In this document: positions 12,690-52,607 of the stretch, one piece after another
Numbering within the stretch: position 1 is the stretch's first letter
Layout: the number at the start of each line of letters is the position of its first letter
Source: an uncultured Candidatus Saccharibacteria bacterium
GTDB taxonomy: Bacteria > Patescibacteriota > Minisyncoccia > Phycocordibacterales > JACOZG01
Direction: 5' to 3'
NCBI GenBank assembly: GCA_964399075.1
Contig: CAYNPK010000001.1
Location: forward strand, 160,961-224,960
DNA: 64,000 bases
Position numbers and translations under genes: made by a program
The notes under the pieces: model-generated
Told to the model about the DNA's origin: nothing
The model's input: only the letters and a program-made list of their open reading frames with translations
The model's database searches: none

Positions 12690-12977
12690 ATGGCGGTCCA
12701 AGTTCATGAAGAAAGATTGATAGCCCTGCTCCAGCGTCTAACGGCCGAGTTTCTTAATCGCGAGAGTGGCAAGCAATCTCTAATCACCGTTACCGACTTC
12801 AATCTCTCAACCGACCACCGTCGCGGGATGATTAAAATTTCCGTCTTGCCGGAGAGCATGGGCGAGAGCGCGCTCCTCTTCGCCAAGCGTCGACGACATA
12901 GTTTGAGAGATTATATCAAGAAGAACGCTCGCCTCGGCCGTATCCCCCATTTAGATTTCGAGTTGATTAAGGCCTAG
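12690..12977 (+). CDS. rbfA: ribosome-binding factor A
   Basis: 95 aa immediately after infB; RbfA-like VTDFNLSTDHRRGMIKISVL pattern. Confidence 0.7.
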   Translation: MAVQVHEERLIALLQRLTAEFLNRESGKQSLITVTDFNLSTDHRRGMIKISVLPESMGESALLFAKRRRHSLRDYIKKNARLGRIPHLDFELIKA

Positions 12978-13045
12978 TAGCCAAGTGGTAAGGCAAGGGT
13001 CTGCAAAACCCTTATACGGCGGTTCGATTCCGCCCTAGGCCTCCA
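12971..13045 (+). tRNA. tRNA-Cys (GCA)
   Basis: Cloverleaf GGCCTAG acceptor, anticodon loop CTGCAAA, TTCGATT T-loop, encoded CCA, U73 discriminator. Confidence 0.85.
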
Positions 13046-13862: not shown

Positions 13863-13921
13863 ATCCTCGCTTTTCTTTTTGTACTGCTCACCTTTTTCTC
13901 CAAAATCCTTAAGTTTTTCCT

Positions 13922-14947
13922 CTAATACAGGGGTGATGTATGGATCAAGATTTTGGTCTGGAGCAATACCCCTTGGTCTTCAGCTATTTCATCATCTTGC
14001 ATTCTGATTGCCAGTCGAGGAATAACTGCGTTGCCGTCCTGATCAAGTGAATAATAAACATAAAAATCACCACCTTCTAAATGAGATCTTGCCGTATCAG
14101 GATTGGCAGTACACCATTCCAAAGGATATCCATCCAGAGATTTAACGAGCCGCTCTGGATCAGAATTCTTTTCATACTTAACCCACTCTCCCCTGATCTC
14201 TTTTAGACCCTCTGTGGAATACTCCGGCAACTCAATAAGAAATTGAGCGTATATTTTTGAGAAATTTTCTGATGAAATTAATTTTTTAAATTCAGCGTCA
14301 TCTAATTTGGTGCTTGTGTTTTCTATCTTAATACCATCTCGCCTGAGTTGCTCGGATAAAGCGCTGACGGTCATCGCTAATGCTCTAGCATTAAGTGGTG
14401 GAAATGACGCGACTGTTTCTTTATTTCGTTTTTTAAATATTGCTTTTTCTTTTCCAGACTCATCAACACCCTTCTTTAATCCACCCATTTTAGTGATTGA
14501 AGTAAAGACAAGATATTTAGACCAGGTAGGATAAGTTGCATCATCGCTAGTTAGATACCGCATCCATCTGTCTAATGAGTGTTTTTGATCATTGACTATT
14601 TGTTGTATCTTTTTGTCTTTAAATCCATCGGTTATTTCCACATCTCCGTATCCCATTTCCCTTGCAATTTTTTGCTCTAATAAAAACGCTTGCTCTGGAA
14701 CATCTTCTGGTTTAATAATGAGCGCGTCATAGATCTTGTCTCGAAACATTTCCAGATTGCGTTCGCGTTTTTGTTTGTCAGGATTGAGGAAGATATTCTC
14801 GAGTCTATCCATGTAAGCCTCGATACGCTCGACTGGGTCATTGGGAACCTTCTCATCAGTCCGACGCTCTTCACGTTCCACGGCCCGATTAACCTCTGGC
14901 GAGGTTTGGAGTTCGGGATTTTTAAGATGAAGTGGGTGCTTTTCCAT
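13922..14947 (-). CDS. hypothetical protein (341 aa)
   Basis: Intact ORF, 59 nt upstream of the previous hypothetical gene in a different frame. Confidence 0.45.
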   Translation of the reverse strand: MEKHPLHLKNPELQTSPEVNRAVEREERRTDEKVPNDPVERIEAYMDRLENIFLNPDKQKRERNLEMFRDKIYDALIIKPEDVPEQAFLLEQKIAREMGYGDVEITDGFKDKKIQQIVNDQKHSLDRWMRYLTSDDATYPTWSKYLVFTSITKMGGLKKGVDESGKEKAIFKKRNKETVASFPPLNARALAMTVSALSEQLRRDGIKIENTSTKLDDAEFKKLISSENFSKIYAQFLIELPEYSTEGLKEIRGEWVKYEKNSDPERLVKSLDGYPLEWCTANPDTARSHLEGGDFYVYYSLDQDGNAVIPRLAIRMQDDEIAEDQGVLLQTKILIHTSPLY

Positions 14948-15011
14948 ATCTAGTAATTTTATAATTTTACCAGCTTTTTGCCTAATTTAGAATTTAGAAT
15001 TAAGTCCACTC

Positions 15012-16814: not shown

Positions 16815-16866
16815 GAGGGCTTATACAGCGTGCCATAGTTTGAGTAAAAAGTCCATATAGAAAATA

Positions 16867-16895
16867 ATTGGCATTTAAGACATCTTTAATTATAA
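16867..16895 (+). promoter_or_regulatory. sigma70-like promoter TTGGCA-N17-TATAAT upstream of tRNA-Leu(TAA) and the FemX-like gene
   Basis: Both hexamers read directly; the -10 lies ~16 nt before the tRNA 5' end. Confidence 0.5.
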
Positions 16896-16910
16896 TGAAA
16901 TCTTGAAGTA

Positions 16911-16995
16911 AGCCCGGGTGGCGGAACTGGTATACGCGCACGACTTAAAATCGTGTCCCTCACGGGATGTGGGTTCGATTCCCACCCCGGGCACA
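16911..16995 (+). tRNA. tRNA-Leu (TAA), long variable arm
   Basis: GCCCGGG acceptor, anticodon loop CTTAAAA, 13-nt variable arm, GGTTCGATTCC T-arm. Confidence 0.85.
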
Positions 16996-17010
16996 AAATC
17001 CAACCACACA

Positions 17011-18051
17011 ATGAAGCAATTCAAGTTCAGAGAAATCGGAGAAGATGAAAATTTTGACCTGAACAATTTTTGTAATAATGTTCCGTTCACGCAAGCGAAT
17101 TTTTATGGTAATTGGCAAAAGAGTCTAGGTAGAAGCGTAAGAAGATTCTTGATAGATAACAACAATAAAACAGTCGCCTATTTCCAATTGATTAAATATC
17201 CGCTTCTACTTAACAAAAGCTACCTGTACATCCCTTATGGCCCGGTAATAAAAAACTTTAAAGAATTGCCAAAAGATTTTTTTGCTAACCTCAAACAGGA
17301 ATTAAAACGAATTGCCAAAGCAGAGAACGCGGTTTTTGTTCGGCTTGATTTTACTCCATCGGTTCCAAACGACACTCTCGCAAAATTTTTTACCAAAGCT
17401 CCGCTCTATACTTACCACTCGGCATATTTCCAACCCCGCGCCGAGTGGTTTCTTGGTTTAGGAAAACCGAAAGAAGAACTATTGATGGATATGCATACGG
17501 ATAATCGCTACTCAATTCGTCTGTCAGAAAAAAAACAAATAACAACAGAAATAATCACCAAAGACTTTGAAAAATATTTTGATGTTTTTTACGAACTAAT
17601 GACAGAAACGGCGAAAAGAAATGGTTTTAGTCTTCATTCAAGAAATTATTATGAGCATATCTTTACTGATTTATCAAAAATAAGTGGCGCTCATTTAGTT
17701 ATTGCAAAATATGGCCAAAAAATTTTGGTTATCAAAATCATAATCGTCTTCGGAATTGTTTCGAATGATGTTTTCACTGGCTCGAGCAGTGAAGAGAGAA
17801 ACCGTCGACCTACTTATCTGACAATCTGGAGGGCTATATCTCACGCTAAGGAGTTAGGGTGCCAATTCTATAATTTCGGTGGGATATCCACTGAAAACAA
17901 AATTTACAAGGGCTGGGACGGCCTGACAGCCTTCAAGAAAAAATTTGGTGGCGAGGAAATAAAACATTCCGATTTTTTTGATCTAGTCACAAGTCCGTTT
18001 TGGTATTGGGTTTATAACTTCAGAAAACGCCTTAAGAAAATTAATTTATAA
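17011..18051 (+). CDS. FemAB-family peptidoglycan bridge-forming aminoacyl-tRNA transferase (FemX-like)
   Basis: YLYIPYGPV, FVRLDFTPSV and C-terminal YNFGGISTEN blocks parallel Weissella FemX; the track ORF start 16918 lies inside the tRNA, so the real start is taken as MKQFKF. Confidence 0.65.
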   Translation: MKQFKFREIGEDENFDLNNFCNNVPFTQANFYGNWQKSLGRSVRRFLIDNNNKTVAYFQLIKYPLLLNKSYLYIPYGPVIKNFKELPKDFFANLKQELKRIAKAENAVFVRLDFTPSVPNDTLAKFFTKAPLYTYHSAYFQPRAEWFLGLGKPKEELLMDMHTDNRYSIRLSEKKQITTEIITKDFEKYFDVFYELMTETAKRNGFSLHSRNYYEHIFTDLSKISGAHLVIAKYGQKILVIKIIIVFGIVSNDVFTGSSSEERNRRPTYLTIWRAISHAKELGCQFYNFGGISTENKIYKGWDGLTAFKKKFGGEEIKHSDFFDLVTSPFWYWVYNFRKRLKKINL

Positions 18052-18053
18052 AA

Positions 18054-19247
18054 TTAGCCGAACATTAACCACTCGGGTTTAAAGATAAGCAACAAGCCGA
18101 TAATGAGCATGAGAATTCCTCCGATCAAGTGTGACCACCGGCTGTATTTAGCGCTGATCCCGGTCATCTGCAAAGTAGTCATGGCCACGAAGAAGATAAA
18201 CAAATCGTCGAGCATGAAGACGAATATGTAGAGCAAGATGTAGAGATAATATTGCCACTTCGCCAAATCACTCAAAGCCAAGACTTGGGTATAAACCGCC
18301 GGTAATCCGGCCGAACAGAGAAGCTCAACCAAATTAACCGCGAAAGCAAGCAAAATGATAGCTCCCAAAGCTAAGAAAAAACTTCTTTGTTGAGTGATGT
18401 CTTTTAATTTTTCGAACACTCTCTGCTTCTTCTCCGAACCAGTCACCTTGCAGGTAGCAGTATGATTAGTAAAATATTCCTTCAAGTTGTAAACGCCACC
18501 AACTAAAGTCACCAGGCCGATAATAATTCTGACCCAAATTACTACGCCAATAAACAAGATTAAATTAAGCCAAGCGGCCATAAAGACAAAATAAACCGAG
18601 GCCGAGGCAACAATAAAGGCGGTGCCCAAGATCCACATCTTCCGCTTATCCTTCATTCCCAGCAGAAGAGAGATCAGAAACAATAGAACCCACATAGCAC
18701 AGGGGTTGAAGCCGTCCAATCCCCCCATGACTATCGTGAGTATCGGCAGAGAAAAATTAAGCGCGTCTATCTCTCCAAGAAAAGGCAGGTCGATTATTTT
18801 TGTATCACTTATCGTCTCTTCTTGCGGATTATTGTCTTGACTAAAGACTTCTACACACTGATTAGTGAGACAATACTCCACCGCCTCTTCTATTTCTCTC
18901 CCAGTTGTCGCGTCGTTATAATAACCAATAAAATATTTTTCCCCCACTACCGTAAAGGGCACTCCTGATACACTAGCGTTTAATTTCTTGGCAACTTCCA
19001 CCATTAAGTCCCTATTGCCAGCGTCACGCCAAATTTCATAATCATAAACTTTAACTTCCGGATATTTCTGCTCCAGTTTCTCCAAAAACGGTTTTTCCCT
19101 AGCGCAATGCGGACAACCATCGCCCCAGAAAAAATAAACGTTCACATCACCAATATCTTGAGCCAGAATATTTTGCGCCGGAACAATTAACAACAGAAAA
19201 ATAAATAGAGAAAATAAGATTTTCTTAAGCATGTTTTTTTTCTCCAT
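18054..19247 (-). CDS. thioredoxin-domain / CcdA(DsbD)-like transmembrane thiol:disulfide interchange fusion protein
   Basis: Signal/TM segment, WGDGCPHC thioredoxin motif, then polytopic domain with conserved TM cysteines (GFNPCAMW ... LCSAGLP). Confidence 0.7.
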   Translation of the reverse strand: MEKKNMLKKILFSLFIFLLLIVPAQNILAQDIGDVNVYFFWGDGCPHCAREKPFLEKLEQKYPEVKVYDYEIWRDAGNRDLMVEVAKKLNASVSGVPFTVVGEKYFIGYYNDATTGREIEEAVEYCLTNQCVEVFSQDNNPQEETISDTKIIDLPFLGEIDALNFSLPILTIVMGGLDGFNPCAMWVLLFLISLLLGMKDKRKMWILGTAFIVASASVYFVFMAAWLNLILFIGVVIWVRIIIGLVTLVGGVYNLKEYFTNHTATCKVTGSEKKQRVFEKLKDITQQRSFFLALGAIILLAFAVNLVELLCSAGLPAVYTQVLALSDLAKWQYYLYILLYIFVFMLDDLFIFFVAMTTLQMTGISAKYSRWSHLIGGILMLIIGLLLIFKPEWLMFG

Positions 19248-19268
19248 TTTAATTTAAAATTTAAAGAA

Positions 19269-19553
19269 TTAATTAATAATTTTAATTGCCTTACCATTAA
19301 TTAAGGCGTCAGCAATCTTTTTGTAGGCAGAATACAAAATCCTTTGATAAGTACTCTGAGAAGTATCCATCTTGTCAGCCGCTTCTCGTTGTTCTAGATC
19401 GTTAATGTGACGCCAACGATAAGCTTCTATCTCTTCGGCAGTAAGTTCCACAATCTCAAGATACCTCATTGGCACACCTTGAGGCTTGAAATAAGTTATG
19501 TGTGGATTAAATTCTATTTTTCGGCAAAGTCTTGGTCTGGGCATAATTTTCAT
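19269..19553 (-). CDS. DUF134/UPF0251-family predicted DNA-binding protein
   Basis: 94 aa; MPRPRLCRKIEF...YFKP N-terminus and sigma-70 region-4-like HTH (DLEQREAADKMDTSQSTYQRIL). Confidence 0.6.
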   Translation of the reverse strand: MKIMPRPRLCRKIEFNPHITYFKPQGVPMRYLEIVELTAEEIEAYRWRHINDLEQREAADKMDTSQSTYQRILYSAYKKIADALINGKAIKIIN

Positions 19554-19628
19554 TTTAATAATAAATTACTTCAGAAGAGAAGGCAAACCGACCTCTTTAC
19601 GAAAAGAGGTCGGTTTCCGGGTTTTATT

Positions 19629-19871
19629 TTACTTTTGCTGGTTCTGTAAAGCCGATTTTTCTTCTTTGATCGCCGCTAATTCTTCTTCGAGCATTTTCTC
19701 TTCGTTCTCTAAAGCGGATAGCTCGTTTTTTGGAGAGATAAATCTCCTGCGACTGAAATCATATCCACCACAGCAACCTCGTCCAGTTCCTGCACCAGCA
19801 CCGCAAGGACCCATTCCTCGTCCAGTTCCTGCACCTTGACCCATAGGGCCAGTTCCATCTAATTTTGGCAT
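19629..19871 (-). CDS. DUF5320-like small protein (Gly-rich, Cys-containing N-terminus and coiled-coil C-terminus)
   Basis: MPKLDGTGPMGQGAGTGRGMGPCGAGAGTGRGCCGG followed by a leucine-zipper-like ENEEKMLEEELAAIKEEK; sits directly upstream of the DUF134 gene. Confidence 0.5.
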   Translation of the reverse strand: MPKLDGTGPMGQGAGTGRGMGPCGAGAGTGRGCCGGYDFSRRRFISPKNELSALENEEKMLEEELAAIKEEKSALQNQQK

Positions 19872-19932
19872 ATTTTTAATATTTTTTATTAGTTTAAATA
19901 GATAGCTCGACCTTTATTTACTATCTATTATG

Positions 19933-19961
19933 AGTATATACCCATAACATTTTACTGTCAA
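19933..19961 (-). promoter_or_regulatory. sigma70 promoter TTGACA-N17-TATACT for the DUF5320/DUF134 transcript
   Basis: Reverse complement of 19933-19961 reads cTTGACAgtaaaatgttatgggtaTATACTcat, ~60 nt upstream of the start codon. Confidence 0.55.
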
Positions 19962-19977
19962 GGAGTTAAGCATTCTT

Positions 19978-20009
19978 AAAAAATACCCCCCGGACTGGTT
20001 TCCGGGGGG
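19978..20009 (-). terminator. rho-independent terminator (CCCCCCGG-loop-CCGGGGGG plus U-tract on the minus strand)
   Basis: Perfect 8-bp GC stem followed on the minus strand by UAUUUUUU. Confidence 0.6.
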
Positions 20010-20171
20010 TTGTGACGACTCTGTTGTTAGCCGTCACAGGGTTCACCGCGATTCGCTTCGGTTACGCTGCCACCAGGCTCCTCAGCACAATCATGGCGGT
20101 TCCTCCTTCGAGTCGCCGTGTTACAATGTGTGGCTCCGCCCAACGCGCGAGCCTCTGCTAGTTATCAGAGC
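20010..20171 (-). ncRNA. candidate structured small RNA / micro-ORF element between two terminators
   Basis: ~55-60% GC and ORF-free; at least six local hairpins; contains GAAGGAGGAA-N5-ATG and a 10-codon ORF (MIVLRSLVAA, ~20062-20094). Confidence 0.25.
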
Positions 20172-20207
20172 AAAATAAAAAAGAACCGCAAGTTTTTCGC
20201 CTGCGGT
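20172..20207 (-). terminator. rho-independent terminator after the radical SAM gene
   Basis: Minus strand ACCGCAGG-cgaaaaac-TTGCGGT hairpin followed by UCUUUUUUAUUUU, directly after the stop codon. Confidence 0.55.
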
Positions 20208-20241
20208 CCCTGATACCTCATACTCTCTTCACCTCTTTCTC

Positions 20242-21810
20242 TCATCTCTTACGATGAGTCTTGACCAAGTCATCCGTCATCTTTTGGAAGTGGAGGAGCT
20301 TAGCCGCTTGGGCAAAAAACTCCGCCAATCCATGCGGATCCCGCCGGAGCACCCACCAAAGCTGATGGGCAAAGAAGATATCCGGCCGGCGGAACAAGTT
20401 CCGCCACAGGAGCCGACCAGCCACGGCCAGATTCCGCCAACTTAGACGACTGGGCCGATGATAAGGACCACGTCTGGAAGCCAGAACCCGACAGCGTTGG
20501 TAGTAATTCCGAGAATGGAAGAGGTGGCGAAGCAATTCCACATAACCATCGATAAGGAATTGCTCCGGCAATTCGGTTTCGAAATTGAAACCGAGATGAT
20601 GGGTGTTGTTACCTCCCGATTCGCCCCGCAAGCGCCCGGCCCTCTTGAGCTCTTGGTAGAGAGGCGTCCCTCGAACGGCCGTCAAAAGTCCCGGCATTGG
20701 CATTACCACACCGGTCGTTAGCAGGAAGGCTGGCAAGACCTCAAAGACATTCGGTTTCTCACCATCGTGACCGATGATGATACCGCCACTAACCTCCAGC
20801 CCTGATTCCTGAATGATGGCGATCTTTTCCGCCAAACTCAAACTGCCTAGATTCTGACCCTTATCCATCGCCTTCAAGACATCTGGATCTGAGGATTCAA
20901 GACCGATAAAGATTTCAGCAAATCCCGCATCAACCATCAAGTCACGGATATCGGCGTGATTAAGCATGCCCAAGTCCGCGCTGGCTTCCGTAAACAGAGA
21001 GAAGGGGTAAGACCGCTCTCTCTGCCAATCGGCCAAGACTGGCAGAAAAACGCGTAGGGCCGACTTATTGCCAATGAAGTTATCATCAACAATGAAGACC
21101 GGACCACGCCAACCAGCTTGATAAAGAGCGTTGAACTCGCGGATCATCTGCTCTGGCGACTTAGCTCGAGTGCGACGACCATAGAGACCGGGAATGTCGC
21201 AGAAGTCGCAAGAGAAGGGACAGCCACGAGAGTATTGGACCGCCATGGAAGCGTAATCGTCCAAGTTGATCAAGTCCCAACGTGGCACCGGAGTCCTGTC
21301 GATCAGAGCCTTACCTTCACGAGTGAGGGAGGCGGGAGACATTCTCTGCACCCAAACACTCTCTTCGTAGATCGCCCGAGGTGTACCAGCGCGCCAGTCT
21401 TCCAGAAAAGGCCAAAGAGTGACTTCGGCTTCGCCAAGAACCAGATAGTCAGCCGGCACATCATCCGGATACAAAGTCGGATGCGGGCCACCACTGACAA
21501 CCTTCTTGCCACGCGAGTGAACTCTCTTGATTACTTCTCTAAGCGACTCACTCTGAACCAACATGGACGAAGTGAGAATCAGATCAGCTTCGTCAATCTG
21601 ATCATCGGTGAGAGATTGAACATTGAGATCAACCAACCCGGTAACCAGAAAATCGTCAGGCAACATGGCGGCCACAGTTAAGAGTCCGGTTGGAGGCATG
21701 GCAGACTTTCTGCCTGAGATTTCCACAGCTTTTTGGAAACCCCAAAAGGAAATCGGGAATTTGGGATAGACCAAGAGAACTTTCGTACGGATGCGTGTAT
21801 GAAGACGCAT
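20242..21810 (-). CDS. B12-binding-domain radical SAM protein with C-terminal DUF4070-like extension
   Basis: N-terminal cobalamin-binding region, radical SAM CPFSCDFC (CxxxCxxC) motif, 522 aa; GC ~52% versus ~40% in flanks. Confidence 0.8.
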   Translation of the reverse strand: MRLHTRIRTKVLLVYPKFPISFWGFQKAVEISGRKSAMPPTGLLTVAAMLPDDFLVTGLVDLNVQSLTDDQIDEADLILTSSMLVQSESLREVIKRVHSRGKKVVSGGPHPTLYPDDVPADYLVLGEAEVTLWPFLEDWRAGTPRAIYEESVWVQRMSPASLTREGKALIDRTPVPRWDLINLDDYASMAVQYSRGCPFSCDFCDIPGLYGRRTRAKSPEQMIREFNALYQAGWRGPVFIVDDNFIGNKSALRVFLPVLADWQRERSYPFSLFTEASADLGMLNHADIRDLMVDAGFAEIFIGLESSDPDVLKAMDKGQNLGSLSLAEKIAIIQESGLEVSGGIIIGHDGEKPNVFEVLPAFLLTTGVVMPMPGLLTAVRGTPLYQELKRAGRLRGESGGNNTHHLGFNFETELPEQFLIDGYVELLRHLFHSRNYYQRCRVLASRRGPYHRPSRLSWRNLAVAGRLLWRNLFRRPDIFFAHQLWWVLRRDPHGLAEFFAQAAKLLHFQKMTDDLVKTHRKR

Positions 21811-21953
21811 AACATAACTCCTATATAAGATGTGTAAGAGAAAGAGGTGACAAAGACCAAACCTTGATAATCATCGCAAGAATCAATTAAATTGTAAAAT
21901 TGCTTAGTAAATGATTTAATTAGAAAAGTTAGGAGAAGATAGAGAAGATTAAA

Positions 21954-22026
21954 CCGCCCATAGCTCAGCTGGTAGAGCAGTTGCCTCTTAAGCAAACGGT
22001 CGGGGGTTCGAACCCCTCTGGGCGGA
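21954..22026 (+). tRNA. tRNA-Lys (CTT)
   Basis: Acceptor CCGCCCA/TGGGCGG, anticodon loop CTCTTAA, TTCGAAC T-loop. Confidence 0.8.
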
Positions 22027-22038
22027 CATGGAGAAATT

Positions 22039-22125
22039 GCCTTGGTGGCGGAATTGGTATACGCGCTAGCCTTAGGAGCTAGTTCCCGCAAGGGATTGAG
22101 AGTTCGAGTCTCTCCCAAGGCACCA
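22039..22125 (+). tRNA. tRNA-Leu (TAG), long variable arm, CCA encoded
   Basis: GCCTTGG acceptor, anticodon loop CTTAGGA, long variable arm, GTTCGAGTC T-arm, terminal CCA. Confidence 0.85.
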
Positions 22126-22260
22126 AAATCAAATCAGCCATTTTGCTTGACTTTTATATCTTTTTGATGTAGTATAGAAAGTGGACAAAAAACAATCTCC
22201 TAGTGTTAGGAGATTGGATAAACAGATCTTTGAAACTCTTGTGAACAAGAAAAAAGGAGA

Positions 22261-23454
22261 ATGATCATGAACGAGCCTGGAAACGAGATGTGGGTCGGAA
22301 TGTTCTGGGGCGCCGTGATCGTCCTACCCATTGCGGGCATAGTAGCGCTCGTCTATTTCTTGGCAATCACTGACACAATCTTCACTTTCGTCAAGGAAGG
22401 AGAGATCAAGGCGGTGATGATTGGAGAATCCTTGGTGAAGTTTCTAGTCAACGTCAGTGGTTATCGGTACTACCACCCTACAGACAGCGACCATCCGGCC
22501 AATGCTGGCAAGAACATCGAAGATGTTGTCGATGACTATGCTCGTCTGTTCCCACAAAGTCCAAAGACTTCAATCAAACTGGTCAGAGAACATGTCATTG
22601 TGAAGTTTGACGAAGAAAAAGACAAATACCGAAACTGGTTCAACCGACTTGGTCTCTACTATATCGGTTGGTTGCCTGGATACTTCAAACTTCTGTGGTA
22701 CAAGTTCTTTTGGCAGAAATGGCAACAAGTAGGACAAGATCAGGGGCTCAATGACCCAACCCCAAACAAAGAGGAGGGTAAGTACTTCGTCAAACCAAGA
22801 CAAGAGACTGTCGGATCCTTGTTCTTCCAGACAGTGTATCCCATCACTGCCACTGACGTGGATCTCAAAGAGAACGTCACGGTCAAGATAATTACTCTGG
22901 TAACCGTGCGAGTGGTCTACCCGATGCGGACACTCTTTCGGATTCTACCCATTGGTAACTGGTTCGGCTTCCTCCACTCATCGGTAATTTCTGCCATCAG
23001 AGATTTTGGTGGCGACCAAACCTTCGAGAAGATAAGAAAGGAGAAGCATGAGGCAACAGAGTCGGCTTTCGAAAAAGCGGTGATGGGTGTCAACCCGCAA
23101 CTACTTGAGCAAATTGGGGTAATCGTCATCGGTGTGGATTTCCAGCGGGTTGAATTTCAAAATCCGGAACTCCACAGACGCTACCAAGAGGCGGGCGTCG
23201 CTGAACAAGTCGGTAAAGCATTACAACGAAAAGCCAAAGGTCAGGCTGCGGGGATTCGAACGATCGCAAAAGCCGAAAAAGAACGGCTGGATCAGACGAT
23301 CCCCTCAGATGGTCCAGCGATTTCTAACATCGTACGTGGGATTGTTCTCGCGACCGAGGCTTTGTCAAACGCCAAGTCCCAGAAAGAAACGCCCGATCAA
23401 AACAAAAAACAAAAAGACAAGAGCAAGAAAGGAGAATCACAAGAGCAAGAGTGA
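22261..23454 (+). CDS. SPFH/band-7-like membrane protein with large insertion
   Basis: N-terminal TM; TVKIITLVTVRVVYP and VIGVDFQRVEFQNPELHRRYQEAGVAEQVGKALQRKAKGQAAG match the SPFH core and HflK/flotillin-like coiled coil; GC-rich; likely start at the third codon (strong AAAGGAGA RBS). Confidence 0.5.
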   Translation: MIMNEPGNEMWVGMFWGAVIVLPIAGIVALVYFLAITDTIFTFVKEGEIKAVMIGESLVKFLVNVSGYRYYHPTDSDHPANAGKNIEDVVDDYARLFPQSPKTSIKLVREHVIVKFDEEKDKYRNWFNRLGLYYIGWLPGYFKLLWYKFFWQKWQQVGQDQGLNDPTPNKEEGKYFVKPRQETVGSLFFQTVYPITATDVDLKENVTVKIITLVTVRVVYPMRTLFRILPIGNWFGFLHSSVISAIRDFGGDQTFEKIRKEKHEATESAFEKAVMGVNPQLLEQIGVIVIGVDFQRVEFQNPELHRRYQEAGVAEQVGKALQRKAKGQAAGIRTIAKAEKERLDQTIPSDGPAISNIVRGIVLATEALSNAKSQKETPDQNKKQKDKSKKGESQEQE

Positions 23455-23462
23455 GACACAAA

Positions 23463-23507
23463 AAAACCGGTAGCGAAGTATTACTTCGTTACCGGTTTTG
23501 TTTTTCT
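23463..23507. terminator. bidirectional rho-independent terminator
   Basis: AAACCGGTAGCGAAGTA-TTACTTCGTTACCGGTT palindrome flanked by A-run upstream and T-run downstream, between convergent genes. Confidence 0.55.
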
Positions 23508-23539
23508 AAAAAGAACAAATCCTTTCTGCCATGTGGCTC

Positions 23540-24283
23540 TTATGGAGACCGACGGTCTTCCACGACAACCAGAATCTCTCCGGAGTAGTGGTGATGGTGG
23601 TGATGTTCCACCACCAAGGGCTTGCGGTCTCGACACTGATCAGGTTGAGGGCGGAACGCGCCAACTTCTCTACCCGACCCAGCCAGCCCAGACTTTTCTG
23701 GGACAGTGTAAGCCGGTGGAGGCGCAGGCGGTCGCGAAACCGTCACCTCCGGCGAAGGAGGGGCCTCTGTCTCCTTCCGTTCTTTCGCTTCTTCAGGCGG
23801 AGGAGCAGAAGGAATCTTCGACACCTTGGGGGTATCATCTACCACTGCCGAAGACAAATCAGAAGCCGGTCGAGACTGGATGGCCTCCAGCACCTCCTGA
23901 TGACGCTCTTCAGTGGTAGCCTCCGAGGCCCTGTAACTGGCCTGCAGATTCCCCACCCCCTTCAAAATGTCTCCATTCTGGGAACATCCCTGAATGTGGT
24001 GAATCACCAAGAACAGAAACAACATTCCGAAGAGAGCAATGGTACCCTTGAGGATACGCTCGAGGCCGGACGGATGATTGCGGATGGCATCGGCGACAGC
24101 GGGGCGAGAGCTATCCGTCTGACCTTGCTGAACAGCGTTGGTCAAGCGGGTCATATTCTCACTTAGGTCGGTGAGTAGCGGGACCACCACACCAGCCACC
24201 GCCCGACCAACACTTTCGGCGGTCAAGGCCGGCTGAGTCGGTGGATCGGGAAGAGTTCGACGGGTGATTACTTTCTTGGCCAT
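23540..24283 (-). CDS. hypothetical single-pass membrane protein with Pro-rich linker and HHHHHH tract
   Basis: Longest ORF in a GC-rich stretch; start placed at the second ATG preceded by GGAAAGGAGG; TM IALFGMLFLFLVI; C-terminal VVEHHHHHHYSGE; competing plus-strand ORFs lack signals. Confidence 0.45.
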   Translation of the reverse strand: MAKKVITRRTLPDPPTQPALTAESVGRAVAGVVVPLLTDLSENMTRLTNAVQQGQTDSSRPAVADAIRNHPSGLERILKGTIALFGMLFLFLVIHHIQGCSQNGDILKGVGNLQASYRASEATTEERHQEVLEAIQSRPASDLSSAVVDDTPKVSKIPSAPPPEEAKERKETEAPPSPEVTVSRPPAPPPAYTVPEKSGLAGSGREVGAFRPQPDQCRDRKPLVVEHHHHHHYSGEILVVVEDRRSP

Positions 24284-24371
24284 GATTGGCCTCCTTTCCG
24301 GCTTTTTAGCCATATGGAATTGGAAACGAACATCATTACACCAAACCTATAGCTAGCACGAGGTCTTTAAG

Positions 24372-24406
24372 ATGTCAAGCCAAAACTCCACACCGCCACT
24401 TGACAT
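24372..24406. promoter_or_regulatory. divergent promoter region with 8-bp inverted repeat ATGTCAAG-N19-CTTGACAT carrying two opposed TTGACA boxes
   Basis: Each repeat arm embeds a consensus -35 hexamer on opposite strands; downstream TATAAT (24427-24432) for the plus gene; possible operator. Confidence 0.35.
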
Positions 24407-24497
24407 TTAATGAATATATGATACCCTATAATAGGAAGAGGTCTTGTGACCTTTTGTAAACAATAATAGGCAGTCCTTTGACATAAGGAGGTAGACG

Positions 24498-25352
24498 ATG
24501 AAACCGGTACACAAACTTGGTCTGATCGTAGCGATCCTGGTAATCGCTGTGACAATTCTGTTGGTAACGTCCGACAATTCTTCTTTCAAGACGGTCGGAT
24601 ACACCCTCCTAACAATCGAGGGTCTCCTGGCATTGATCCTCATTGTCCCTTCCATCTATCGGGCTATTGGCAAGGCGACAGTAGCGAGTGGGGAACGATG
24701 GAAAAACCTGAAAAAGACAGTGAACCCACTCATGATCCTGGTGGCCGGATTGATGATCTTCGCGATCATCCGACGATTGCTGTGGCCCAAATTCTCCTTC
24801 ATGGAATCCTTCGCCCAGGAGAACTGGATGGTGGGCATGATTGTGGCCGGTATTATCTTGGCTGCAATCCTGATCTCTCAACAAGAGAGTGAGGCCAGCA
24901 AGAAGATCGGCAAGGTGCTAGCCTGGTCCCTGGTCATAATCAGCCTGGTGACCATTGGACCAATAGTCGGCAAGCGTCTCGGGATTAACGACTGGCTGGC
25001 CGAACGCCCCCGTCCAGCGACAACACAGGCGCTAGCGGAGGGAAGTCGGATCAGAACGAGTAGTGCTCCAACCTGGACTGAAGACGTCATTGCTCCAGTG
25101 GGAGAATGGTCAAACTGGCACCAGCTCCCATCGGGCGTTGATGGTGTCTACCAGGTTCTAAATCGGGGTAGTGTCATGTTCCAACTTTCCGACAAAACTA
25201 CTTTTTCAGTCAGGCCGAAGGAAATTGTCGATTGGGGCGATACGGATGTGCCTTTGTCTCTGAAAAAGACAAGGTATTGCGTAACGTCGCTGGATGAAAG
25301 GCCAGTGATCGTACGCTTCACCTACCAGAGGAAGTCCGGGGGCATGTGGTAA
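24498..25352 (+). CDS. hypothetical polytopic membrane protein with ~110-aa C-terminal soluble domain
   Basis: AAGGAGG RBS 7 nt before ATG; 4-5 predicted TM helices. Confidence 0.55.
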   Translation: MKPVHKLGLIVAILVIAVTILLVTSDNSSFKTVGYTLLTIEGLLALILIVPSIYRAIGKATVASGERWKNLKKTVNPLMILVAGLMIFAIIRRLLWPKFSFMESFAQENWMVGMIVAGIILAAILISQQESEASKKIGKVLAWSLVIISLVTIGPIVGKRLGINDWLAERPRPATTQALAEGSRIRTSSAPTWTEDVIAPVGEWSNWHQLPSGVDGVYQVLNRGSVMFQLSDKTTFSVRPKEIVDWGDTDVPLSLKKTRYCVTSLDERPVIVRFTYQRKSGGMW

Positions 25353-25380
25353 AAGGAAACGCCACACTCCCCCACAACAC

Positions 25381-25430
25381 AACGAGCGAGAGGATATCAA
25401 TCCTCCCGCTCGTTTTTTTATTTTTCTATT
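25381..25430 (+). terminator. rho-independent terminator
   Basis: AACGAGCGAGAGGA-loop-TCCTCCCGCTCGTT 14-bp stem followed by TTTTTTTATTTTTC. Confidence 0.65.
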
Positions 25431-25440
25431 TTTACTTTAC

Positions 25441-25722
25441 CTACCGACAACCAATCGTCCCGCAAATGAGGTGCATAATTCCGAAAGCGGAAACCATAAT
25501 GAACATTCCCACCACTCCCCAGAGCACATGCTGACGGCCAATGGTTCTGGCGTCCTCGCTAGCATCACCTTTAATAATCTCGTAGACGCCGTAGAGGAAG
25601 AAAAGCAGAGCAATACCAAAGAAGAGCTTAATTAAGGGATTAAAGATGTTGACTGTAATCTTATCAATCAGATCAATCGCGTCAGTAGCCGCTTCAGCCG
25701 TGGAAGTGAAGGAGGTAAACAT
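25441..25722 (-). CDS. TrbC/VirB2-like (T4SS-pilin-like) small two-helix membrane protein, paralog 5
   Basis: Two hydrophobic helices separated by a charged loop (GDASEDARTIGRQ), shared with four upstream paralogs. Confidence 0.55.
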   Translation of the reverse strand: MFTSFTSTAEAATDAIDLIDKITVNIFNPLIKLFFGIALLFFLYGVYEIIKGDASEDARTIGRQHVLWGVVGMFIMVSAFGIMHLICGTIGCR

Positions 25723-25730
25723 TCGTTATT

Positions 25731-26108
25731 TTAACGAACAGTAGGTAAAGGTATCTGAGGTACAGTAATGTTTGTTGATCCAAACCGCGCAGTTCTACCA
25801 AGAACAGAGACCAAGCCAACAATAGAAACCATCACGAAGATACCAATCAAGCCATAAATAATCGCATCCCGACCAGCCTTACGCTTATCCTCATCACCAC
25901 CGGCAGTAATAAACTTAAAAGCGCCATAAATAACATAGAGGATAGCAATAGCGATCAGAAATGGAACAATGTAAGCATTTATGAAATTTACTATCTCAAA
26001 AAGAGACTGACCCAAACCCTTACCTTCAAAACTTGCTTGCGCAGATGCCATAATTGGCAAAACCATTACCGCACCAGCAACTAAAACTAATTTAATTTTT
26101 GTTAACAT
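25731..26108 (-). CDS. TrbC/VirB2-like small membrane protein, paralog 4
   Basis: Signal peptide, YGAFKFITAGGDEDKRKAGRDAIIYGLIGIFVMVS block. Confidence 0.6.
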   Translation of the reverse strand: MLTKIKLVLVAGAVMVLPIMASAQASFEGKGLGQSLFEIVNFINAYIVPFLIAIAILYVIYGAFKFITAGGDEDKRKAGRDAIIYGLIGIFVMVSIVGLVSVLGRTARFGSTNITVPQIPLPTVR

Positions 26109-26135
26109 AAACTTAATAATTAATCTATTAATAAA

Positions 26136-26564
26136 CTAACTACCTCTATTAAACGTGGGAACTGGCGGTGGTGTTGTCTCAAAATCAACAGTCCTAATAA
26201 GGATACCGACAAATCCCCAAACTGAAATCATGACAAAGAGGGCAATAATCCCGTAAACCATCATGTCTCGACCGGCTTGCCGCTCTTTCTCATCATCTCC
26301 CTTCCTGATATATTTTAGCATCCCGGCAAGTAAATACACAATAGCCAGGGCGATGAACAAGTAGACAAGCGGTTGAGCTACTTTATCTAACCCACAATTA
26401 ATAAAGTTGGAGAAATTAGCTCCGCAGTTGGCAGAAGGATTTGTTACCGTTTCAATATCGTCTCCATAAGAACCGCTTTGAGCTAATCCAACCGCAGGTA
26501 AGATTAATAGACTAAGAATCAGAATCGGGAGTAAAAATTTTGAGTACTTAAGAAGACTGTTCAT
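26136..26564 (-). CDS. TrbC/VirB2-like small membrane protein, paralog 3
   Basis: Signal peptide, LKYIRKGDDEKERQAGRDMMVYGIIALFVMIS block. Confidence 0.6.
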   Translation of the reverse strand: MNSLLKYSKFLLPILILSLLILPAVGLAQSGSYGDDIETVTNPSANCGANFSNFINCGLDKVAQPLVYLFIALAIVYLLAGMLKYIRKGDDEKERQAGRDMMVYGIIALFVMISVWGFVGILIRTVDFETTPPPVPTFNRGS

Positions 26565-26587
26565 TGTTGATGTTTATAGAAATAATT

Positions 26588-26917
26588 TTAAGAACCTGAT
26601 AATTGATCAATCGTTCCTTCTATCATCGTCTGGATCACGAAAGCGCCCAAGACAATGGCCGCGCCAACAATAGTCCAAAGGAAGGCTTGCTTGGCCTTGG
26701 TCAAATCCTCCGGCTTGCCTCGCGCCATGACGAAGAGCAAACCAACATAGACAATCATGAGAGCAATAATGGGAAGACCAATATTGACAACAATTTCTAA
26801 GATTTTTGTAATTAATTCCGGAATGGAATTAATGCTACCAAGAGGATTAAAAGAGGGAGTTGAGAAACTGCCAGCCCCATCTTGAGCAAATACTTTAACT
26901 ATTAAAAAATCTAACAT
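26588..26917 (-). CDS. TrbC/VirB2-like small membrane protein, paralog 2
   Basis: Same two-helix + charged-loop architecture (ARGKPEDLTKAKQAFLW). Confidence 0.55.
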   Translation of the reverse strand: MLDFLIVKVFAQDGAGSFSTPSFNPLGSINSIPELITKILEIVVNIGLPIIALMIVYVGLLFVMARGKPEDLTKAKQAFLWTIVGAAIVLGAFVIQTMIEGTIDQLSGS

Positions 26918-26924
26918 AAAATAT

Positions 26925-27344
26925 TTAATAATATTTATAGTATATCATAGACAATGGCGGTAAATAAGTATCATCATCAGTTAGAGACTTCATAATTGTT
27001 TCCACAATCAACCAAGCCGCCAGAGTAACAATTAGACCAATTATGGCCATACTGATCATGTGCTTCGCCTCGGAGCGTTTGCCATCGTTAGTGGCATACA
27101 CCACCATTTGGATGCCAGCGTAAGTGATGGTTAGCACCGCCGCGGCCGTGGCTAAATAAACCAGCCAAAGAAAGATGTTTCTGCCCAATTGTAATAATTG
27201 AGGAAACTTGCAACTATCAAAACCCTCACAAGGCACTAGACTCTCTGGCGGTGGCGAACCTTGAGCATAAATTAGAGGAATGGCGATGAAGATCCACAAC
27301 AGCACACTGCTGGCGATAATTATTAGACGGCGATTTAACTTCAT
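26925..27344 (-). CDS. TrbC/VirB2-like small membrane protein, paralog 1
   Basis: Signal peptide; YATNDGKRSEAKHMISMAIIGLIVTLAAW block. Confidence 0.55.
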   Translation of the reverse strand: MKLNRRLIIIASSVLLWIFIAIPLIYAQGSPPPESLVPCEGFDSCKFPQLLQLGRNIFLWLVYLATAAAVLTITYAGIQMVVYATNDGKRSEAKHMISMAIIGLIVTLAAWLIVETIMKSLTDDDTYLPPLSMIYYKYY

Positions 27345-27362
27345 AAAAATAAAATAGGGTGA

Positions 27363-28685
27363 CTAGATGGGATTAATTAATAATTCTAATTCTCTTTGGG
27401 CCTGATTCAAGGCCTCGACGAGTGGCACTCGGCCGATCTGTGAGCGCTCAAATAAAGTGCGGAAGACAGTGTTGGTTCCTGAAGGATTAGGATCCGGCCA
27501 AGATCGAGCCAGCAAAGCCGATTGGTAGAAGACAGTCTGGATAGGATCAGCTGAAGGCGGTGAACTCAAGAGATCCAAACGAGCTGGCGGTAAGTCTGCT
27601 AAATCAGCCAAGGAGCGATTGAAGGAACTTGAACTTAATGAGGAAGCAGCCCTAGCAGCGCCGGTAATTTTAACCTGATTGCTGACAGTTTTCTTCACCA
27701 AGGCCAGGCCAGTAAAACGGCCCAGAGTTAAACTATTAGACCCGGAGCGTTGAGGGATCAGGGTTACGTCAATATTAAGCTGAGGATTCTGTTCTCTTAA
27801 GCGCGAATATTCGCTAGCGTAACCGAAATACATTGCCAATTGACCACGGAGGAAGGCCTCCCTCGCCTCCGGCTGAGCGCTATTCCACGAGTAGAGAGCG
27901 TTAGCCGGATCGGAGAAACGGCCGAAGAAAGCCAGAGCCTCCGAGGCCGGCAATTGGCTATAACCGAAGCTGTCATTAAGAGTGGCGCGCCAACCTTGCT
28001 CACTTGAGACGACAATCGGATTGCCGGCCTGCAAAATCAACATGGTTAAAATGTCTTTGGCATGAGTGATGTTACTAAATTGACCCATGGCAACGGCAGC
28101 TTGAGAAATATTGTCTCGCAAATCAGCCGAGACCAGCGCCTTAACCGCCACGGGGAAATCATCCCAAGTTTGAGGTGGTCGGATTAGTTTAGCGTTAGTG
28201 ATTAAATTACGATTGTAATAAAGCACTAGAGGGTCTACATAGAGCGGTAAGGCCAGAAAGCCATCTGGTTGTAAAAATAATTCCGCTCCGCGAATAAAAT
28301 TATCCTGAAATTGGCGGAGAGAATAATTGCTGTAAGGAATAGTGAGTAATTTGTCAGCCTGATTGCTTAGAGTAATTTGACTGGCCATTATCAAATCGGG
28401 ACCCTCGCCTCTCGCTAGAGCATCAACTAAGACTGATTCAAAAGTAGCTGGATTCTGATAAGAATAAAGGAGGGTAAAGTCTTCTTCGTGAACTTTATTG
28501 AAGGATTCGACGAAGGCACCCATCTCTGTCTCGGGAATAGTCCCCCAGAGAGTAATCTGTCCAGCCTGACCGCCGGGCTGGGCCCTAAACCCGGGCAAGA
28601 TACCAGCAAAGATTAAAGTGCCAATAATCAAAAAGAAGCCGAAGATGATTAGTAAAATTGTTTGGAAAATATTGGGACTTTTCAT
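27363..28685 (-). CDS. extracellular solute-binding protein (ABC family-1-like), membrane anchored
   Basis: N-terminal TM anchor; ITLWGT and sugar-SBP-like pattern; no permease or ATPase partners adjacent. Confidence 0.55.
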   Translation of the reverse strand: MKSPNIFQTILLIIFGFFLIIGTLIFAGILPGFRAQPGGQAGQITLWGTIPETEMGAFVESFNKVHEEDFTLLYSYQNPATFESVLVDALARGEGPDLIMASQITLSNQADKLLTIPYSNYSLRQFQDNFIRGAELFLQPDGFLALPLYVDPLVLYYNRNLITNAKLIRPPQTWDDFPVAVKALVSADLRDNISQAAVAMGQFSNITHAKDILTMLILQAGNPIVVSSEQGWRATLNDSFGYSQLPASEALAFFGRFSDPANALYSWNSAQPEAREAFLRGQLAMYFGYASEYSRLREQNPQLNIDVTLIPQRSGSNSLTLGRFTGLALVKKTVSNQVKITGAARAASSLSSSSFNRSLADLADLPPARLDLLSSPPSADPIQTVFYQSALLARSWPDPNPSGTNTVFRTLFERSQIGRVPLVEALNQAQRELELLINPI

Positions 28686-52480: not shown

Positions 52481-52607
52481 CAAAATCGTTAATATAACGC
52501 AAATCCTATACACACAAAGATGATTATGCTATAGTACTTCTGGAACTTCAAGATAGTCTTGAGGTATGTTCTTTTAAAATCCGATCCTGAAAGGAGGAAC
52601 AGCACGT

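Follow-up and report, generated by a model that had tools for sequence, protein, structure and literature searches.

A stretch of the 64,000-nucleotide window of DNA analysed here, part of a CPR (Patescibacteria-like) chromosome, differs in composition from its surroundings. This raised the question of whether positions 19978–25430 represent one block of foreign DNA that had integrated at a pair of tRNA genes, as the first-pass annotation suggested. The stretch has a GC content of 50.5%, compared with 43.2% elsewhere in the window, the former being the highest value among 586 windows of the same length (mean 44.1%, sd 2.5). Its description as about 5.4 kb of GC-rich DNA was accurate, although the measured value is at the low end of the 50–55% that had been estimated. 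The GC contents of the individual genes were 52.6% for the radical SAM gene, 48.2% for the SPFH gene, 57.4% for a gene encoding a His6 tract and 52.0% for a membrane protein gene (TM284), relative to a window gene mean of 43.8% (sd 5.2). The tetranucleotide profile was a moderate outlier (z 1.1–1.95, correlation with the window 0.32–0.55), and the region at 52.5–56.5 kb was a much stronger one (z 3–3.6). Together, the two profiles indicated that the compositional anomaly is real, and the terminators, both tRNAs and all four genes that had been annotated were present. Based on the analyses below, however, the stretch is probably a mosaic rather than one acquired island, with a lineage-specific left segment, a tRNA pair and a right-hand module that appears to have been inherited vertically.

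The left segment (about 19962–21950) would comprise a lineage-specific, self-contained radical SAM gene that has a promoter, ribosome-binding site and terminator to itself, followed by a spacer and a second terminator. Similarity at the DNA level to 26 other DUF5320 loci sets in precisely at the −35 hexamer (19961), with nothing conserved upstream of the hexamer, and the boundary previously placed near 19978 is therefore real. The segment is closed by an intrinsic terminator on the minus strand, T2 (19985–20010; 10 pairs, 8 of them G-C, and a T-run), and the conserved DUF5320 promoter starts 24 nt beyond it. Another minus-strand intrinsic terminator, T1 (20181–20211; 12 pairs, 6 of them G-C, and a T-run), was missing from the first-pass annotation and lies 30 nt past the radical SAM stop codon. 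The two terminators enclose a GC-rich (~58%) non-coding spacer of 170 nt (20011–20180, minus strand), in which AGGAGG precedes an open frame of 10 codons. The spacer had no Rfam match, no remnant of the C-terminal extension of long-form radical SAM homologues and no counterpart in the fetched loci, plasmids or phages, and the folding of its core without the terminators was not significant (z −1.4). As a separate observation, a palindromic, conserved promoter was found upstream of DUF5320, together with a leader hairpin that shows covariation.

The radical SAM gene (20242–21810, minus strand) is solitary and encodes a cobalamin-dependent (class B) enzyme of 522 residues. Its B12-binding, Radical_SAM and DUF4070 domains all scored above the Pfam cut-offs, in agreement with the earlier description of a cobalamin-binding radical SAM enzyme with a DUF4070-type tail, and its CxxxCxxC motif (C197/C201/C204) was invariant in alignment A1. 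Reading of the sequence revealed a promoter-like site at 21870–21898 on the minus strand (TTTACA, 17 nt, GATGAT, with TG), and AGGAG is located 8 nt ahead of the ATG. The enzyme is predicted to work with SAM, a [4Fe-4S] cluster and cobalamin, and its predicted chemistry is most likely the methylation of an unactivated carbon. The same three-domain architecture is found in HpnP and many uncharacterised HpnP-like clades (PMC10697835). The window enzyme resembles these proteins in its architecture and cysteine motif, but it is far below every NCBIfam cut-off, with no characterised equivalog (best 71 bits versus a cut-off of 360), and it is a short form that lacks the ~80-residue C-terminal helical tail that 95 of the 120 closest homologues carry. 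Hopanoid synthesis is not known from CPR bacteria, and the substrate of this enzyme must therefore differ from that of HpnP.

At least 4,512 homologues of the radical SAM protein were identified, the best of which was 58% identical, and they too are solitary and in unrelated neighbourhoods. The suggestion that the gene co-occurs with DUF134/DUF5320 failed in both directions, as neither was beside the gene in any of 80 radical SAM loci and the gene was not in any of 80 DUF5320/DUF134/thioredoxin-membrane loci. It is conceivable, though in our estimation unlikely, that this junction carried the gene ancestrally and that the sampled relatives have since lost it, such that nothing in the region was acquired. 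Consistent with such a history, a neighbour-joining tree pointed to no donor and placed it on a long unresolved branch within a clade in which CPR and DPANN sequences abound; there are homologues in other Patescibacteria (P0046, L003, L018, L039 and L046); and in L089, L003 and L087 the gene is likewise 5–8 points GC-richer than its flanks. However, the gene was absent from the tRNA site of the related loci L083 and L085, from the 7.7 kb upstream of the L086 SPFH gene and from upstream of DUF5320 in 22 of 22 loci containing DUF5320. In addition, the sequence from the gene to the conserved DUF5320 promoter had no counterpart anywhere, and the wholly different neighbourhoods of the homologues fit a moving gene. 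The suggestion that these genes might be lacking at this locus elsewhere was borne out for the radical SAM gene, which was missing from the site in every relative examined, but not for the SPFH/membrane pair, which is kept. The relatives are so distant that a gain in the window lineage, the presumed direction of the change, is indistinguishable from a loss in the others. Identities to these relatives were 74% for GyrA (in L085), 51–54% for IF2, 62% for FemAB and about 30% for SPFH; no closer genome was found, and every window protein that was looked up belonged to a 90%-identity cluster with just one or two members.

The lineage-specific segment sits between two members of a four-tRNA array (Cys, Leu-UAA, Lys-CUU, Leu-UAG), which would be ancestral and opened by rearrangements. 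The tRNA-Lys(CUU) (21954–22027, plus strand) and tRNA-Leu(UAG) (22039–22125, plus strand) genes are the third and fourth members, and would represent the intact end of the array. Their order and anticodons are the same in L083 and L085, with 81% identity for tRNA-Lys(CUU). In L085, the order is IF2, RbfA, the four contiguous tRNAs, a 227-residue orphan, SPFH, a polytopic membrane gene, pilin-like genes, a solute-binding protein, a methyltransferase and GyrA. In L083, it is IF2, RbfA, tRNA-Cys, tRNA-Leu(taa), a Mur ligase, FemAB, tRNA-Lys(ctt), tRNA-Leu(tag), SPFH, a 170-residue Pro-rich gene on the opposite strand, a polytopic membrane gene, five pilin-like genes and a solute-binding protein. 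The array is accordingly split once in L083 and twice in the window, and the gap between tRNA-Leu(taa) and tRNA-Lys is 38 bp in L085, 2,417 bp in L083 and 4,959 bp in the window. The idea of a tRNA integration hotspot was therefore partly upheld: these split counts mark the cluster as a hotspot of rearrangement, but an integrase and an att-like repeat were absent. Known tRNA-associated genomic islands share with the window an atypical composition beside tRNA genes and, as seen among the relatives, variable gene content at the array. They differ from it in that the window has no integrase or direct repeat of a tRNA 3' end, its variable material between tRNAs includes housekeeping genes (BipA, FemAB and a Mur ligase), and most of the proposed island is kept in its relatives.

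The right-hand part (22126–25430) would be a vertically inherited, fast-evolving envelope module in which an SPFH scaffold is followed by a polytopic membrane protein. The SPFH (stomatin/HflK-like) gene, on the plus strand, has a likely start codon at 22267 and ends at 23454; the resulting 395-residue form is the one that the protein collection lists (from NCBI and Logan sources), and a promoter-like site was read from the sequence at 22147–22175 on the plus strand (TTGACT, 17 nt, TAGTAT). The protein has an N-terminal transmembrane helix, SPFH domains, long coiled-coil helices and a charged tail. The Pfam Band_7 match of the single sequence was sub-threshold (20.9 versus 23.6 bits). The SPFH fold that had been proposed was nonetheless confirmed by a profile of 40 family members, which matched PH stomatin (8.6e-13) and HflK (3.9e-7), and by an AlphaFold model (pLDDT 81.6, pTM 0.71) whose top Foldseek matches were HflK (2.5e-8), stomatin, prohibitin, QmcA and flotillin. 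A supposed insertion of ~130 residues proved instead to be an N-terminal subdomain conserved in the family, with nearly invariant residues (G55, G131, P139 and W151) and a low-confidence loop of ~55 residues (residues ~70–125).

Downstream, TM284 (24498–25352, plus strand) encodes a 284-residue polytopic membrane protein. Where 4–5 transmembrane segments and a soluble C-terminal domain had been assigned earlier, its low-confidence model had 5 helices and a C-terminal beta domain of ~90 residues. An intrinsic terminator, read from the sequence, lies 3' of the gene (25381–25420, plus strand; 15-nt arms with one mismatch, 14/15 pairs, and a T-run). Wedged antisense between SPFH and TM284 is the His6 orphan gene (23540–24283, minus strand), with which the SPFH gene shares a bidirectional terminator (23460–23502; 21-nt arms, 90% complementary) that was also missing from the first-pass annotation. 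The orphan likely starts at the ATG at 24283, 7 nt after a Shine-Dalgarno sequence (AAGGAGG), and the protein collection lists this 247-residue form (from NCBI and Logan sources), where it makes up a singleton cluster. As described previously, the product is Pro-rich with one predicted transmembrane segment; however, HHHHHH is 15 residues before the C-terminus rather than at the end. The gene had no Pfam or NCBIfam match, and the L083 and L085 genes in the corresponding slot were not significantly similar to it. The slot it occupies, between SPFH and the membrane partner, is variable and is absent in L085, L086 and L171.

A comparison with related genomes had been proposed to determine if the locus is empty elsewhere, and it revealed that the right-hand 3.3 kb is conserved there in four CPR loci (L083, L085, L086 and L171). 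All four share the order SPFH-like gene, polytopic membrane gene, 5–6 pilin-like genes and solute-binding protein, which in two loci continues with a methyltransferase, and in L085 also with GyrA; L086 and L171 contain the shared genes from SPFH to the solute-binding protein. The same two tRNAs precede SPFH in two of these loci, immediately so in L083 and with one orphan gene in between in L085. Judged from sequence and position, SPFH is a conserved positional orthologue in these genomes that evolves very fast. TM284 appears to be the positional orthologue of the gene after SPFH in every related locus, with a weak homology (15–23% identity, with no tblastn match) that is based on its position, its architecture and a short shared motif (APVGxWS).

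A rather improbable alternative is that the right half is ancestral in place but that homologous recombination with a divergent relative of higher GC replaced its sequence. The low identities of SPFH (29–35%) and TM284 relative to the flanking GyrA, FemAB and IF2 would be expected from such an event, and the overall GC of the relatives (.49–.53) resembles that of the two window genes. Against it, the adjoining first pilin-like gene (25441–25722) has a GC3 of 0.553 and shares 45–57% identity with its orthologues, which means that identity does not change sharply at the boundary, and no donor was found, the best SPFH match among 1.84 billion representative proteins being 35% identical. Moreover, the orthologues are GC-raised in two of the three measured relatives. 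In L083, SPFH, the Pro-rich gene and the membrane gene had GC contents of.545,.579 and.554 versus.489 for the whole locus, and in L086, the SPFH and membrane orthologues were at.531 and.527 versus.501. In L085, the membrane gene was raised (.577 versus.527) but SPFH was not (.528). The raised GC therefore seems to be intrinsic to the SPFH and membrane genes rather than to mark a recent transfer.

These data also make it very improbable that the whole 5.4 kb is one island integrated at tRNA-Lys/tRNA-Leu, as its GC peak, moderately atypical tetranucleotide profile, internal tRNA genes, strong terminal terminators and, in a word-index search, lack of close homologues for SPFH and TM284 are outweighed by the SPFH/membrane pair lying in the same place in four related loci, by the GC-raised orthologues, by tRNAs that are mid-stretch rather than at an edge, and by the absence of any integrase, att-like repeat, phage, plasmid or defence signal.

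Returning to the mosaic, its right-hand module can be compared to SPFH-NfeD systems (E. coli qmcA-ybbJ, HflK/C, and the archaeal stomatin PH1511 with its NfeD partner). The likeness extends to the predicted fold and architecture of SPFH, to its family profile matches and to a same-strand order, seen in qmcA-ybbJ as in L085, L086 and L171, in which SPFH is followed by a small polytopic membrane protein that ends in a beta domain. By contrast, the window SPFH sequence alone is below the Band_7 cut-off and carries an extra family-specific subdomain with a disordered loop, the window pair is split by an antisense orphan, and TM284 has no detectable homology to NfeD (no Pfam match; hhalign versus YbbJ, 0.7% probability). 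The constant neighbour also differs, as the pair in the relatives always adjoins an array of 5–6 VirB2/TrbC-like pilin genes rather than FtsH or a ClpP-type protease. By analogy with HflK/C, QmcA and stomatin, SPFH may form a membrane-anchored oligomeric cage that organises or shields the membrane partner encoded beside it. On the mosaic reading, the region is mostly ordinary, with one lineage-specific radical SAM gene beside a conserved membrane-scaffold pair.

The window is a chromosomal segment of a small-genome bacterium of the CPR (candidate phyla radiation, Patescibacteria) type, and it carries genes for IF-2, BipA, ClpB, GyrA, FemAB and RNase P RNA as well as five tandem T4SS_pilin-like genes. 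The proteins that were looked up fell into 90%-identity clusters with one or two members, indicating that a close relative is absent from the databases. Windowed profiling bore out the compositional anomaly that the first-pass annotation had claimed for 19978-25430. The region has a GC content of 50.5% versus 43.2% for the rest of the window, the highest value among 586 equally long windows (mean 44.1%, sd 2.5), and its tetranucleotide profile deviated moderately (z 1.1-1.95; its correlation with the window was 0.32-0.55). GC contents of the individual genes were 52.6% for the radical SAM gene, 48.2% for the SPFH-like gene, 57.4% for the His-tract gene and 52.0% for the gene of a 284-aa membrane protein, against a mean of 43.8% (sd 5.2) for the 66 open reading frames of the window. 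The strongest compositional outlier of the window lay elsewhere, at 52500-56700 (GC 0.50-0.56, tetranucleotide z 3-3.6, correlation near 0), which encodes an amidohydrolase and a tandem pair of class II (Asp/Asn/Lys-type) aminoacyl-tRNA synthetase paralogues.

The strong terminators expected at both ends of the region were present: the left one occupies 20010-19985 (minus strand), and the right one, read directly off the sequence, 25381-25420 (plus strand). Additional terminators were located at 20211-20181 (minus strand, directly after the stop codon of the radical SAM gene) and at 23460-23502 (bidirectional). The genes for tRNA-Lys(ctt) and tRNA-Leu(tag) were confirmed within the region, and the gene calls held, with B12-binding, Radical_SAM and DUF4070 domains scoring above the Pfam cut-offs and the SPFH protein recognized through its family profile and fold. 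The parts of the region are of known kinds: a scaffold protein of the SPFH type, an enzyme of the class B radical SAM group, and an orphan gene.

Relatives of the SPFH protein found with HMMER were traced to the loci that encode them, and these revealed a gene order shared with the window in four loci from other contigs (L083, L085, L086 and L171). In L083 the genes for IF-2, RbfA, tRNA-Cys, tRNA-Leu(taa), a Mur ligase, FemAB, tRNA-Lys(ctt) and tRNA-Leu(tag) precede the SPFH gene, which is followed by an opposite-strand gene for a 170-aa Pro-rich single-pass protein, a polytopic membrane gene, five pilin-like genes and a solute-binding protein gene. The order in L085 is IF-2, RbfA, four contiguous tRNAs, a 227-aa orphan, SPFH and the membrane gene, then pilin-like genes, a solute-binding protein, a methyltransferase and GyrA (74% identical). 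L086 and L171 have the SPFH gene, the membrane gene, five to six pilin-like genes and the solute-binding protein gene, and a fifth locus (L172) has an SPFH gene near RbfA. From tRNA-Lys on, through the methyltransferase and GyrA, the order in the window is the one common to these relatives. The first-pass annotation had named the presence of these genes at this place in related lineages as evidence against its island reading, and such presence is what was found for 22126-25430: this right half of the region is conserved, not acquired.

Of the three relatives measured, two likewise had GC-rich orthologues of the right-half genes, with values of.545,.579 and.554 in L083 (.489 for the whole locus) and of.531 and.527 in L086 (.501). 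In L085 the membrane gene was raised (.577 versus.527 for the locus) and the SPFH gene was not (.528). Because the orthologues were raised in two of three relatives, we read the high GC content as a property of the right-half genes themselves. The SPFH and membrane genes are also the fastest-evolving of the block, at about 30% and 15-23% identity to their orthologues, respectively, compared with 74% for GyrA, 62% for FemAB and 51-54% for IF-2.

The tRNA genes of the region belong to an ancestral array of four. The genes for tRNA-Cys, tRNA-Leu(UAA), tRNA-Lys(CUU) and tRNA-Leu(UAG) are contiguous within 414 bp in L085, and the four tRNAs of the window are 75-99% identical to their counterparts in L083 and L085. 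A single split, by the Mur ligase and FemAB genes, separates the array in L083. In the window (12971-22125) it is split twice, first by two open reading frames and BipA, and then by FemAB, the thioredoxin-membrane gene, DUF134, DUF5320 and the radical SAM gene. An array that is intact in one relative, split once in another and split twice in the window indicates a rearrangement hotspot even for housekeeping genes.

Just outside the left edge of the region, upstream of the DUF5320 gene, we identified a promoter and leader element (19961-19888, minus strand). The promoter (TTGACA-17 nt-TATACT) lies within the 20-bp near-palindrome TTATGGGTATATACTCATAA, which occurs once in the window, and it is followed by a leader hairpin whose GGTCG loop is conserved. 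The element retains 76-92% DNA identity upstream of DUF5320 across about 26 highly divergent CPR loci. The stems of the hairpin covary, with both-sided changes in five of seven pairs in an alignment that was fitted to the model and so leans towards the structure; in the same structure-leaning alignment the covariation score was 0.358 versus 0.221 in shuffles (0 of 500 reached 0.358), and slid controls scored at most 0.154. A same-strand cluster that recurs in CPR metagenome contigs joins DUF5320 and DUF134 with a polytopic membrane protein of thioredoxin fold; in the window it lies at 18054-19871 (minus strand). Among 80 comparison loci (L091-L170), many of them short, DUF134 was present upstream in 37 and DUF5320 in 22. 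The same type of promoter and palindrome was also seen before further genes (L141:1052-1161, L141:2924-3033 and L107:2986-3095), which hints at a small regulon, and a product encoded behind such a promoter in L141/L107, starting MIEIIQNDNPVLRK, reads like a peptide deformylase. Autoregulation by DUF134, a helix-turn-helix protein, would be a plausible reading, and the element is a candidate DUF134 operator and leader. Nothing relevant was found in the literature on the function of DUF134 or DUF5320; the conserved promoter and covarying hairpin provide a testable regulatory hypothesis for these two families of unknown function.

Conservation with the 26 DUF5320 loci begins exactly at the -35 hexamer (19961) and nothing is shared upstream of it, so that a lineage-specific piece can be delimited from about 19962 to the tRNA-Lys gene. 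This left segment carries the radical SAM gene (20242-21810, minus strand). The gene was missing from the tRNA site of both L083 and L085 and from the 7.7 kb upstream of SPFH in L086, and its homologues stand alone in unrelated neighbourhoods. Co-occurrence with the neighbouring DUF134/DUF5320 pair, raised by the first-pass annotation, was contradicted in both directions: this radical SAM gene was found in none of 80 loci of the DUF5320/DUF134/thioredoxin-membrane cluster, and DUF134 or DUF5320 in none of 80 radical SAM loci. As for how the segment arrived, no repeats, integrase, or phage or plasmid similarity were seen. As the relatives are distant, gain here is inseparable from loss elsewhere.

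The product of the radical SAM gene is, on its motif and domain content, a predicted class B (cobalamin-dependent) enzyme. The CxxxCxxC motif (C197/C201/C204) is invariant in the family alignment, PF04055 scored 53 bits (cut-off 29.5), and the N-terminal B12-binding domain PF02310 (residues 35-132) scored 48.7 bits (cut-off 32.1); relatives in the PDB include OxsB, CysS and TokK. The protein resembles HpnP and HpnP-like clades in its three-domain layout, and the combination of B12-binding, radical SAM and DUF4070 domains has been reported for HpnP and for many uncharacterised HpnP-like clades (PMC10697835). Membership of a characterised subfamily (HpnP/HpnR, BchE, the MCR Gln methylase and others) found no support, all 22 NCBIfam matches being far below the curated cut-offs. 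The homologues number at least 4,512, with the best one at 58% identity. Of the top 120, 95 carry a C-terminal tail of about 80 aa that is missing from the window protein. The named close relatives belong to DPANN archaea (Nanoarchaeota, Pacearchaeota) and Patescibacteria, and in a neighbour-joining tree the window protein formed a long branch of unsettled placement within a mixed DPANN/Patescibacteria clade.

A perfect 14-nt inverted repeat (TCACCTCTTTCTCT / AGAGAAAGAGGTGA) flanks the radical SAM open reading frame, with one arm at the stop codon (20229-20242) and the other 27 nt upstream of the start (21837-21850). Its arms resemble anti-Shine-Dalgarno and Shine-Dalgarno sequences, and chance alone would give about 0.13 such pairs per 8.5 kb. 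A regulatory 5' UTR of the gene was considered and rejected, as folding was not significant (z -0.9). Between the two minus-strand terminators downstream of the gene lies a GC-rich spacer of 170 nt (20011-20180), which resembled none of the fetched loci, plasmids or phages. Rfam gave nothing at the gathering threshold for 19978-20241, the best match at a permissive E-value being sau-63 (27 bits versus 100), which spans a terminator. A structured RNA in the spacer was discarded because the folding z of -4.2 comes from the two terminators (core z: minus strand -1.4, plus strand -1.9). The idea that the spacer is what remains of a C-terminal extension of the radical SAM protein was discarded too, since a profile of 95 long-form tails matched the true end of the open reading frame only. 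Within 20011-20241 (minus strand) there are two tiny open frames, each with a Shine-Dalgarno site that is close to perfect, one of 18 aa (MRYQGPQAKNLRFFFILL) overlapping the terminator at 20181-20211 and one of 10 aa (MIVLRSLVAA) inside the GC-rich spacer.

The interpretation of the whole region as a single tRNA-integrated island was only partly supported. The deviant composition of such an island was found, and GC is raised in the L083 and L086 orthologues too. Absence from the site in relatives applied to the radical SAM segment only, and failed for the SPFH and membrane genes, which are present in L083, L085, L086 and L171. Searches of Pfam, NCBIfam and PHROGs identified no integrase or recombinase domain in the four genes or the flanking genes, and a repeat search over 19000-27500 gave no tRNA-derived direct repeat (att). 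There was no PADLOC signal and no PHROG signal beyond generic sigma-factor-like matches for DUF134; viral relatives were not found for the SPFH or His-tract proteins and amounted to just two distant matches for the radical SAM protein.

The SPFH gene (22267-23454, plus strand) has its likely start at 22267 and encodes 395 aa. A word-index search with this protein returned no relative; a full HMMER scan returned 279, the best 35% identical. The single sequence matched Band_7 at E 4e-4 with 20.9 bits, below the 23.6 cut-off, while 11 of 40 family members matched it at up to 1.4e-9, and a profile of these 40 members matched Pyrococcus (PH) stomatin (8.6e-13) as well as HflK, QmcA, stomatin and prohibitin. 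An AlphaFold monomer model built with the 40-member alignment (pLDDT 81.6, pTM 0.71) has an N-terminal transmembrane helix (8-36), beta-rich SPFH domains, a low-confidence loop at about 70-125, long C-terminal helices (302-346 and 352-373) and a charged tail. Foldseek matched this model to HflK (2.5e-8), stomatin, prohibitin, QmcA-YbbJ, flotillin and major vault protein, with a probability of 1.0 for HflK, stomatin, prohibitin, QmcA and flotillin. The sequence match, together with the alpha/beta fold, N-terminal membrane anchor and C-terminal coiled coil predicted by the model, confirmed the assignment of the protein to the SPFH / Band 7 superfamily. The first-pass annotation had also described an insertion of about 130 aa, which did not stand, as this part is a subdomain conserved in the family.

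The gene after SPFH (24498-25352, plus strand) encodes a 284-aa protein that combines several transmembrane helices with a small beta domain at the C-terminus. Both its architecture and its place in the gene order are like those of NfeD, the partner of SPFH proteins (E. coli qmcA-ybbJ). NfeD identity was rejected after Pfam, a PDB profile search, hhalign and Foldseek were all negative or uninformative: Pfam matched none of five positional orthologues to NfeD (E up to 5), nothing pertinent came out of the PDB profile search, and hhalign of the family alignment against E. coli YbbJ gave a probability of 0.7%. With regard to an OB-fold beta barrel behind the helices, a single-sequence model had five C-terminal strands (pLDDT 62) and no Foldseek match below E 0.1. 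Since NfeD homology was not demonstrable, we do not class the partner as NfeD, and a mechanism in which an SPFH cage would act with a membrane partner is something we only infer.

Between these two genes, the His-tract gene (23540-24283, minus strand) most likely starts at 24283, preceded by AAGGAGG at a distance of 7 nt; the product recorded in the protein collection (NCBI and Logan sources) is the 247-aa form. No relatives were detectable, and homology to the genes compared from L083 and L085 was rejected as not significant (E at least 0.33). The slot is filled by an unrelated gene in L083 and missing in L085, L086 and L171. The 227-aa orphan gene of L085 (4518-5201, minus strand), between the tRNA array and SPFH, is 63% GC versus 52.7% for the locus, and is a second lineage-specific gene of high GC content lodged in this part of the chromosome.

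Beyond the membrane gene, five tandem small T4SS_pilin (VirB2/TrbC-like) genes occupy 25441-27344 (minus strand), and each related locus has an array of five to six pilin-like genes beside its SPFH pair. The neighbouring genes that were scanned included no further type IV secretion gene. On a reading that we consider rather unlikely, taken as a whole, the SPFH protein, its fast-evolving polytopic partner and the pilin-like array of this CPR clade would make up one dedicated surface or attachment apparatus, in which an SPFH cage would organise the insertion or turnover of pilin-like proteins. Diversifying selection driven by contact with a host would then account for the high divergence, the raised GC and the variable orphan slot; separately, the solitary B12 radical SAM gene would come from a CPR/DPANN exchange pool, and its substrate would be a lipid or some other molecule scavenged from the host.

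A GC-rich patch with tRNA genes resembles a textbook island, yet this one is mostly conserved core chromosome, and the corrective value of the finding is that composition alone misleads in such small, heterogeneous genomes. The literature searched held nothing relevant on SPFH proteins in Patescibacteria, and we did not find the SPFH/membrane/pilin-like order described there. One of two modest leads, beside the DUF5320 promoter and leader hairpin, is a conserved CPR gene order consisting of an SPFH scaffold, a polytopic membrane protein and a pilin-like array.
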